Assembly (NCBI RefSeq): GCF_044324875.1
Contig: NZ_CP172185.1
Reading direction: 5' to 3' (one strand)
Source: Escherichia coli
Lineage (GTDB): Bacteria > Pseudomonadota > Gammaproteobacteria > Enterobacterales > Enterobacteriaceae
Length of the DNA: 64,000 bases
Below, piece after piece: positions 31,333 to 32,721 of the stretch (position 1 is its first letter; each line of letters begins with the position of its first letter). Below the pieces are notes generated by a model. It had not been told where the DNA came from, searched no databases, and saw only the letters and a list, made by a program, of their open reading frames with translations. The translations under genes and the position numbers were made by a program.

Positions 31333-31821
31333 TTAGCGAACTACCGCGTTGTCAATTTTCTCTTCCGCCTTCCAGATGCGGTATTTCACATCCACATTGT
31401 CTGGCGTATACACCACGATAGGCAGCTTGCTGTTGTAACGCAGCATTCCAGCATCGCCCAGATACGCGGTGACAAATTTCTTCTCTTTCTTGCCATCCGG
31501 GCAGGCCATCATCGTCGAAACCGGGGAACTGACTTTATCAAAGACATAATAATCATAGCCCCAGCCTTCCAGCGTTTTGCTTTCCAGCTTCCCGCCGAGA
31601 CGATGCAAATTGCAATCGACTTCCAGCGTCTGACCGATTAACAGTTCTACTTTCAGGGTAGATTCATCTTCTTGCGGGGTTAACTGAATCACCTGACGCT
31701 TCATGCCTTTTTCAGCTTGCGGATAAGGAGCGATTTTTTCCAGTGGCTGGACGCTCTCTGCCGCCCAGGCGGAGGTGGTGGCGAAAGCGGCAAACAATAC
31801 TGCAGGTAGAATGGTCTTCAT
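31333..31821 (-). CDS. eco: Ecotin, periplasmic serine protease inhibitor
   Basis: 162 aa; signal peptide [20 protein letters not shown]; ecotin fold. Confidence 0.95.
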
Positions 31822-32078
31822 TTTTGCTTTCCTTCTTCATTTATAGGTTTTCACCGATGATGTCGCTGAAGGTTAACATATTCATCAGATTTATTAATTT
31901 GCTTTATGAATAACTTAAAGAACATTCAGATAATTTTACCTGCTCTTTTAGTGTTAAATTCTGATGAGAGAGCAAACCAACAGAAATATTTCTGGTGAAT
32001 TAATCGCTATATAAATATGTTTATAACCATTTGAAATGTGAGCAAAAGCCCGTTTTTGCCACGCTTCCCGCCACTCTT

Positions 32079-32113
32079 TTGATCCTGCTACAGGTTTTAC
32101 CCCGATCGGGGTA
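32079..32113 (+). promoter_or_regulatory. napF promoter: candidate FNR half-site plus NarP/NarL 7-2-7 site
   Basis: ttgatcctgctaca (FNR-like) centred ~20 bp upstream of the perfect inverted heptamer pair taccccg-at-cggggta. Confidence 0.65.
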
Positions 32114-32226
32114 TGCATCTTTGACACATCCTTTAATATCTTAGCGGCTATAAAAATGGCTTATTAATTATGCGGTTTATTTGGTCGCTCTCAATTTTCA
32201 GAGCGCGTTAATGATGGAAGGTCAAT

Positions 32227-32721
32227 GTGAAGATTGATGCATCCCGTCGGGGCATACTCACTGGTCGCTGGCGCAAAGCCAGTAACGGTATCCGTCCGCC
32301 CTGGTCCGGTGATGAATCTCATTTTCTGACCCATTGCACCCGCTGCGACGCCTGTATTAATGCTTGTGAAAACAACATTCTGCAACGCGGCGCGGGCGGC
32401 TATCCGAGCGTTAACTTCAAAAATAACGAGTGCAGCTTCTGTTACGCCTGCGCGCAGGCTTGCCCCGAATCGCTATTTTCTCCGCGCCACACCAGGGCCT
32501 GGGATTTGCAGTTCACCATTGGGGACGCGTGCCTGGCGTATCAGTCAGTTGAATGCCGCCGCTGTCAGGATAGCTGTGAGCCAATGGCAATTATCTTTCG
32601 CCCGACGCTCTCCGGGATCTACCAGCCGCAACTTAATAGCCAACTTTGCAACGGATGTGGAGCATGTGCAGCCAGCTGTCCGGTATCAGCCATAACTGCG
32701 GAGTATCTCCATGCACACTAA
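32227..32721 (+). CDS. napF: Ferredoxin-type protein NapF
   Basis: 164 aa; multiple CxxCxxCxxxCP 4Fe-4S motifs. Confidence 0.93.
   Translation: MKIDASRRGILTGRWRKASNGIRPPWSGDESHFLTHCTRCDACINACENNILQRGAGGYPSVNFKNNECSFCYACAQACPESLFSPRHTRAWDLQFTIGDACLAYQSVECRRCQDSCEPMAIIFRPTLSGIYQPQLNSQLCNGCGACAASCPVSAITAEYLHAH

Follow-up and report, generated by a model that had tools for sequence, protein, structure and literature searches.

The segment at positions 32079–32113 of the 64,000-nucleotide stretch of DNA analysed here (the window) reads TTGATCCTGCTACAGGTTTTACCCCGATCGGGGTA and almost certainly belongs to the control region of the Escherichia coli napF operon (periplasmic nitrate reductase, formerly aeg-46.5), with a site for the oxygen sensor FNR followed by one for the nitrate-responsive NarP and its opponent NarL; we put the probability of this reading at about 0.96. 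The feature is already known, as this is the long-studied napF control region. Work on it reportedly includes that of Choe and Reznikoff (1993), Darwin and Stewart (1995), Darwin et al. (1998) and Stewart et al. (2003), and both mapping of the transcription start and reporter assays in fnr and narP mutants are said to have been published for napF between 1993 and 2003. The present analysis covers sequence, geometry, identity to K-12, conservation, and the presence of napF and narP, while what is said of protein binding, of where transcription starts and of how the operon is regulated comes from the literature on the identical sequence.

The window derives from an E. coli chromosome. Of 5,426 complete E. 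coli genomes, 5,421 have a match to a 501-bp probe, always on the chromosome and, with one exception, only once per genome. The genes are arranged in the order yojI, mqo, eco, napF, napD, napA, napG, and the nap genes run on into ccmA-H. Between eco (31333–31821, minus strand, by annotation) and napF lies an intergenic region of 405 bp, which houses both the FNR and the NarP sites. The napF coding sequence (32227–32721, plus strand) begins with GTG at 32227 and is annotated in RefSeq as the first gene of napFDAGHBC-ccmABCDEFGH; its product passes the NCBIfam equivalog TIGR00402 with 248 bits, compared to a cut-off of 102. The gene of the response regulator NarP (44401–45048, minus strand, identified by annotation and NCBIfam NF007708) is found in the same window, 12 kb downstream of the 7-2-7 site and convergent with ccmH at the end of the nap-ccm cluster. 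NarP passes the equivalog NF007708 with 457 bits, compared to a cut-off of 343.

Over 32060–32230 (171 bp), the window is 100% identical to the K-12 derivative XL1-Blue, and it is identical to MG1655 across the aligned 89 bp (32072–32160). Because the promoter stretch is the same as in K-12, the K-12 literature is directly applicable, without extrapolation. Outside the promoter the window strain departs from K-12, and most E. coli genomes are 95–99% identical to the window over 31800–32300. The placement of the sites at the napF promoter in the initial annotation is borne out by the TIGR00402 assignment of NapF, by identity to K-12, and by the literature on the 7-2-7 site. The closest annotated strain is M217 (NZ_AP019189.1), in which yejO is annotated as an intact autotransporter gene of 2.6 kb, corresponding by homology to ∼45370–47960 of the window; in K-12, this gene is disrupted. 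M217 differs from the window by a 1-bp coordinate shift between napF and narP and so is not exactly the same strain.

The NarP/NarL site, TACCCCG-AT-CGGGGTA, occupies 32098–32113 and is assigned on the basis of sequence, conservation and earlier reports (PMC4549865, PMC2718512). It consists of a left heptamer, TACCCCG (32098–32104), a spacer, AT (32105–32106), and a right heptamer, CGGGGTA (32107–32113). The 16-mer equals its own reverse complement, making it a perfect palindrome, and its centre (32105.5) lies 121.5 bp 5' of the napF GTG. Spacing between the heptamers is exactly 2 bp, as the 7-2-7 class requires, and the AT dinucleotide is invariant in the seven taxa aligned below. A 7-2-7' arrangement has been reported for four genes, napF among them (PMC2718512), and the napF site has been placed at –40 to –49, giving a centre of –44.5 (PMC4549865). 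When the centre of the site in the window is set to –44.5, the heptamer centres fall at –49 and –40, matching the published positions. The context is likewise that of a 7-2-7 site, namely the control region of a nitrate/nitrite-regulated operon, with narP in the same window. Each heptamer fits TACYYMT at six of seven positions, with G instead of T at position 7.

To gauge how much the motif itself contributes, we compared its frequency in the window to expectation. Perfect 7-N2-7 inverted repeats occur 8 times, versus ∼3.9 expected, and TACYYMT-N2-AKRRGTA with up to two mismatches occurs twice, versus 2.4 expected. Palindromy by itself is unremarkable, and we rejected the two-mismatch 7-2-7 consensus as stand-alone evidence. 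With the seventh position ignored (TACYYM-N4-KRRGTA), the napF site is the sole match in the window (1 versus 0.07 expected), and 7 of 100 shuffled sequences reach one match. Support for the sites comes from their position, their conservation across genera, and published experiments on the identical K-12 sequence.

The FNR binding site, TTGAT-CCTG-CTACA (TTGATCCTGCTACA), lies at 32079–32092 on the plus strand and is assigned from sequence, conservation and an FNR ChIP-seq peak (PMC3688515). Its centre, 32085.5, is exactly 20 bp (20.0) from the centre of the 7-2-7 site at 32105.5, so the 20-bp centre-to-centre spacing given in the initial annotation is correct. Compared to TTGAT-N4-ATCAA, the left half matches at 5/5 positions and the right half, CTACA, at 2/5 (7/10 overall, three mismatches). 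Sites with three mismatches number 345 in the window, versus 233 expected; the match is indistinguishable from background and carries no weight on its own. Real FNR sites can match the consensus partially (PMC3688515). The element had been described as an FNR-like half-site; what is present spans a full 14 bp, with a perfect left half and a right half that is degenerate yet conserved.

In K-12 coordinates, the TTGAT site is centred at NC_000913.3:2303638.5, and napF starts at NC_000913.3:2303497. The offset between U00096.2 and NC_000913.3 at this locus is ∼1,976 bp, which is consistent with the record length of 4,641,652. The published FNR ChIP-seq peak, at 2301669/2301675 (U00096.2), labelled napF/yojO and listed with NarL, NarP, IscR and ModE as co-regulators, then lies ∼8 bp from the TTGAT site, or within ∼10 bp if uncertainty in the version offset is allowed for (PMC3688515). 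A better match to the FNR consensus, with two mismatches, is seen in the napF 5'UTR (TTGGTCGCTCTCAA, 32181–32194), where it overlaps a weak terminator-like hairpin and T-run (32172–32188).

Applying the published position of the NarP site (–44.5, with heptamer centres at –40 and –49) to its centre in the window predicts a P1 transcription start at an A residue, position 32150 on the plus strand (NC_000913.3:2303574), 77 nt 5' of the napF GTG. With +1 at 32150, the TTGAT 14-mer is centred at exactly –64.5, which is where Stewart et al. (2003) reportedly located the Fnr site in the napF control region. The primary napF authors are said to have called the –64.5/–44.5 layout 'unconventional', outside the simple class I/class II scheme by which the initial annotation would have had its reading refuted. 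The layout itself, FNR at –64.5 and NarP at –44.5, had been cited there as reported for napF and agrees with our coordinates, as –44.5 is published (PMC4549865) and a +1 of 32150 then yields –64.5.

The predicted –10 hexamer of P1, TATCTT, occupies 32137–32142 on the plus strand (–13 to –8 from +1 = 32150). Given this start, the –10 element is at the expected distance from sites centred at –44.5 and –64.5, and the –10 region, AATATCTTA, is invariant in 7/7 aligned taxa. A second hexamer, TAATAT (32134–32139, plus strand), lies 3 bp upstream and is the putative –10 of the minor promoter P2. This offset fits a second start ∼3 nt upstream, and Stewart et al. (2003) reportedly located the P2 start ∼3 nt upstream of that of P1. 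A consensus –35 element is absent 17 bp upstream of the P1 –10, where the sequence is TGCATC, a poor match, and a simple sigma-70 scan detected no plus-strand promoter at the napF sites. Both results are expected for an activator-dependent promoter, though the scan does not constitute positive evidence.

Several other elements in this region deserve mention. In the interval that separates the NarP site from the –10, the sequence ACACATCCT (32124–32132) shows no change in 7/7 taxa of the cross-genus alignment; position 32131 is A in one divergent E. coli strain. The invariance of this block exceeds the needs of a spacer, and the sequence could be an IscR operator or some other site. A perfect TTGACA at 32121–32126 lacks a –10 at suitable spacing, and Citrobacter does not share it. 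On the minus strand, a promoter-like match, TTGAGA-16-CATAAT (10/12; 32194 to 32167), points toward yojO and eco; there are two such matches, versus 1.6 expected, and this one may be due to chance.

To assess conservation, we aligned the upstream regions of seven taxa—E. coli, E. albertii, four Citrobacter and one Leclercia—and calculated mean identity to the window for each element. These taxa represent the seven usable enterobacterial loci from a genome scan with NapF, the other matches being unrelated ferredoxins. Mean identity is 100% for TTGAT and for the AT spacer of the 7-2-7 site, 88% and 90% for the left and right heptamers, 80% for the right half of the FNR site (in which C-A-C is invariant), and 67% for the FNR spacer. 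The core promoter (32124–32144) averages 87%, compared to 63% for the 5'UTR and 43% for the distal flank. There are no indels between the FNR and 7-2-7 sites in the seven aligned taxa, and the distance from the 7-2-7 site to the start codon is 120.5–122.5 bp in all relatives. In two Citrobacter, the 7-2-7 site reads TACCCCA-AT-TGGGGTA, such that position 7 is changed on both arms and the palindrome is still perfect. A symmetric double change of this kind is predicted by selection for a dimer-binding dyad. The cross-genus footprint independently confirms constraint on the spacing and on both dyads.

Among 5,420 E. coli genomes, 4,963 share a 49-bp stretch without any difference. The chief variant has a left arm of TACCTCG, with C changed to T at 32102 (heptamer position 5, a Y position of TACYYMT). 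This allele is carried by ∼9% of complete E. coli genomes, mostly of the O157:H7 lineage but also strain D8, and is shared with E. albertii. Hence the palindrome is not perfect in all strains, though TACYYMT is still fitted. The inverted heptamers had been termed 'perfect' in the initial annotation. That description holds for their symmetry in the window, which is exact, and does not hold for position 7, where G replaces the T of TACYYMT, or for the genomes that carry TACCTCG.

We considered other explanations for these observations. Conservation over 32079–32118 might in principle be due to coding on the minus strand, since a 54-aa CDS, yojO (b4604; 31954–32118, minus strand), is annotated by RefSeq in K-12 and in most E. 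coli genomes and covers both the FNR and NarP sites, with an N-terminus, MHTPIGVKPVAGSK, derived from these bases. However, the frame-equivalent ORF stops after 15–20 codons in another E. coli strain, E. albertii, all four Citrobacter and Leclercia, and C. werkmanii has GAG in place of the start codon. No NCBIfam family is matched by YojO, and conservation is block-wise over the dyads, falling to 43% in the remainder of the ORF. We regard a coding origin of the conservation as extremely improbable; yojO was probably called in error as an ORF on top of regulatory DNA. Nor does the palindrome appear to be a chance inverted repeat, or a hairpin or terminator to which no regulator binds. Perfect 7-N2-7 repeats are indeed common (8 in the window versus ∼4 expected), and the full consensus with two mismatches is at chance level. 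But the site is conserved in three genera with a symmetry-preserving double change, and binding data have been published for the identical sequence (PMC9262595, PMC4549865, PMC2718512). A NarP/NarL footprint over the site has reportedly been obtained as well. A terminator is hard to reconcile with the lack of a terminator-like call at the palindrome and of a T-run after it on either strand, and a loop of 2 nt is too short for a hairpin to close. The likelihood that the repeat is fortuitous or purely structural seems negligible.

It is also very unlikely that the sites chiefly control a divergent unit, eco or yojO, instead of napF. The intergenic region is divergent, the peak appears in the ChIP-seq tables under napF/yojO or napF/eco (PMC3688515), and the minus-strand match at 32194–32167 resembles a promoter. 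Arguing against this idea, 284 bp separate the sites from the eco start codon, yet toward napF they stand at activator distances (–44.5 and –64.5) from a –10 that is conserved, and the regulated gene is assigned as napF in PMC3688515. Moreover, a napF fragment from –85 to +19, relative to the TSS of the 'proximal promoter', keeps NarP-dependent control (PMC9262595), and Leclercia retains napF and the sites despite having other sequence in place of the eco-side flank. A last alternative is that TTGAT is not a functional FNR site; it could have arisen by chance, or be recognised by CRP or another member of the CRP/FNR family, with FNR acting elsewhere, for example at TTGGTCGCTCTCAA (32181–32194). 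The consensus match of 7/10 is at background level, and the two-mismatch match lies 100 bp downstream. Against these points, 7/7 taxa have an unchanged TTGAT at a constant distance from the NarP site, the half-site typical of FNR is TTGAT and not TGTGA, and E. albertii and Citrobacter have lost the right half of TTGGTCGCTCTCAA. In addition, the ChIP-seq peak is ∼8 bp from the TTGAT site (within ∼10 bp, allowing for the uncertain offset), compared to ∼110 bp from TTGGTCGCTCTCAA. We therefore rejected TTGGTCGCTCTCAA, which is unconserved and farther from the ChIP peak, as a functional FNR site, and find it quite implausible that TTGAT is non-functional.

Additional regulatory elements appear to lie upstream of the FNR and NarP/NarL sites of the napF control region. 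A ModE-like dyad, TCGCTATATAAATATGTTTATAACCA, is present at 32004–32029, with a centre at 32016.5, which corresponds to –133.5 if +1 is 32150; this is the position reportedly given for ModE at napF by McNicholas and Gunsalus (2002). The dyad is kept in Citrobacter as TCGTTATATAA..TATATAAC. A conserved block at 32029–32050, with 82% mean identity across relatives, contains most of a candidate CRP-like site, TGTGA-GCAAAA-GCCCG (32037–32052). The block CATTTGAAATGTGAGCAAAAGC (32029–32052) includes the CRP-type half-site TGTGA at 32037–32041. A Crp site involved in catabolite control of napF, located 5' of those for Fnr and NarP, was reportedly described by Stewart et al. (2009), and the CATTTGAAATGTGAGCAAAAGC block probably represents this site. 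Both ModE- and CRP-like elements are missing from the Leclercia upstream sequence. In Leclercia adecarboxylata (L008, 1200–1240), a tRNA-like motif, GGTTCGAATCC, replaces the eco-side sequence; the eco-side synteny is altered and the FNR/NarP/–10 module is retained. Elsewhere, nap has been found to be activated by ModE and repressed by IscR (PMC8139620).

Existing data on the identical sequence suggest how the region works. FNR and phosphorylated NarP induce napF, and phosphorylated NarL represses it by blocking the binding of phosphorylated NarP (PMC9262595). FNR-dependent transcription of napF requires co-activation by NarP (PMC3688515). On this model, anaerobiosis would allow a [4Fe-4S]-FNR dimer to occupy TTGATCCTGCTACA, centred at –64.5. 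In the presence of nitrate or nitrite, NarQ and NarX would phosphorylate NarP, a dimer of which would bind the inverted heptamers TACCCCG-AT-CGGGGTA, centred at –44.5. FNR and NarP would then jointly activate sigma-70 RNA polymerase at the weak P1 promoter, which has the predicted –10 TATCTT, no usable –35, and a likely +1 at 32150. Phospho-NarL, favoured at high nitrate, would take the same 7-2-7 site, displace NarP, and activate less well. Since NarL would displace NarP at high nitrate, nap expression should peak at low nitrate. Molybdate and carbon-source inputs would be supplied by the upstream ModE and CRP sites, and IscR may also modulate the promoter.

We also entertained more speculative readings, to which we attach little credence. 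The TACCTCG allele might alter how NarP activation and NarL antagonism are balanced or, remotely, yojO might be a real micro-protein with an operator-encoded N-terminus. If the allele does retune the promoter, the nitrate concentration for nap expression would differ in the lineages that carry it.

The napF control region is a textbook case, in which FNR and NarP combine at an unconventional promoter and the paralogue NarL competes for the operator, such that Nap is made only at low nitrate. The result carries little weight as a discovery. Its value is as a positive control, in that a reading from the sequence alone recovered an experimentally defined module at base-pair accuracy.

How does this region compare to known systems? 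In K-12, napF (aeg-46.5) is found at the same locus, with the same flanking genes and distances, and there are no differences in the promoter. At nirB and nrfA, FNR takes the class II position, –41.5, and upstream of it comes the 7-2-7 site, near –69.5/–74.5. At napF this order is reversed, with the 7-2-7 site promoter-proximal and FNR at –64.5, and NarL antagonises at napF rather than activating well. Otherwise nirB, nrfA, fdnG and yeaR are like napF in that NarP/NarL dimers, working with FNR, bind TACYYMT heptamers that are inverted and 2 bp apart (PMC2718512, PMC4549865). The nap promoters of Citrobacter, Leclercia and E. albertii share with that of E. coli the FNR-like and NarP sites, the 20-bp spacing and the –10 block, but vary at heptamer position 7 and in the right half of the FNR site. 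For Yersinia, Pasteurellaceae and Vibrionaceae, too, predictions place FNR and NarP sites upstream of nap (PMC1805755).
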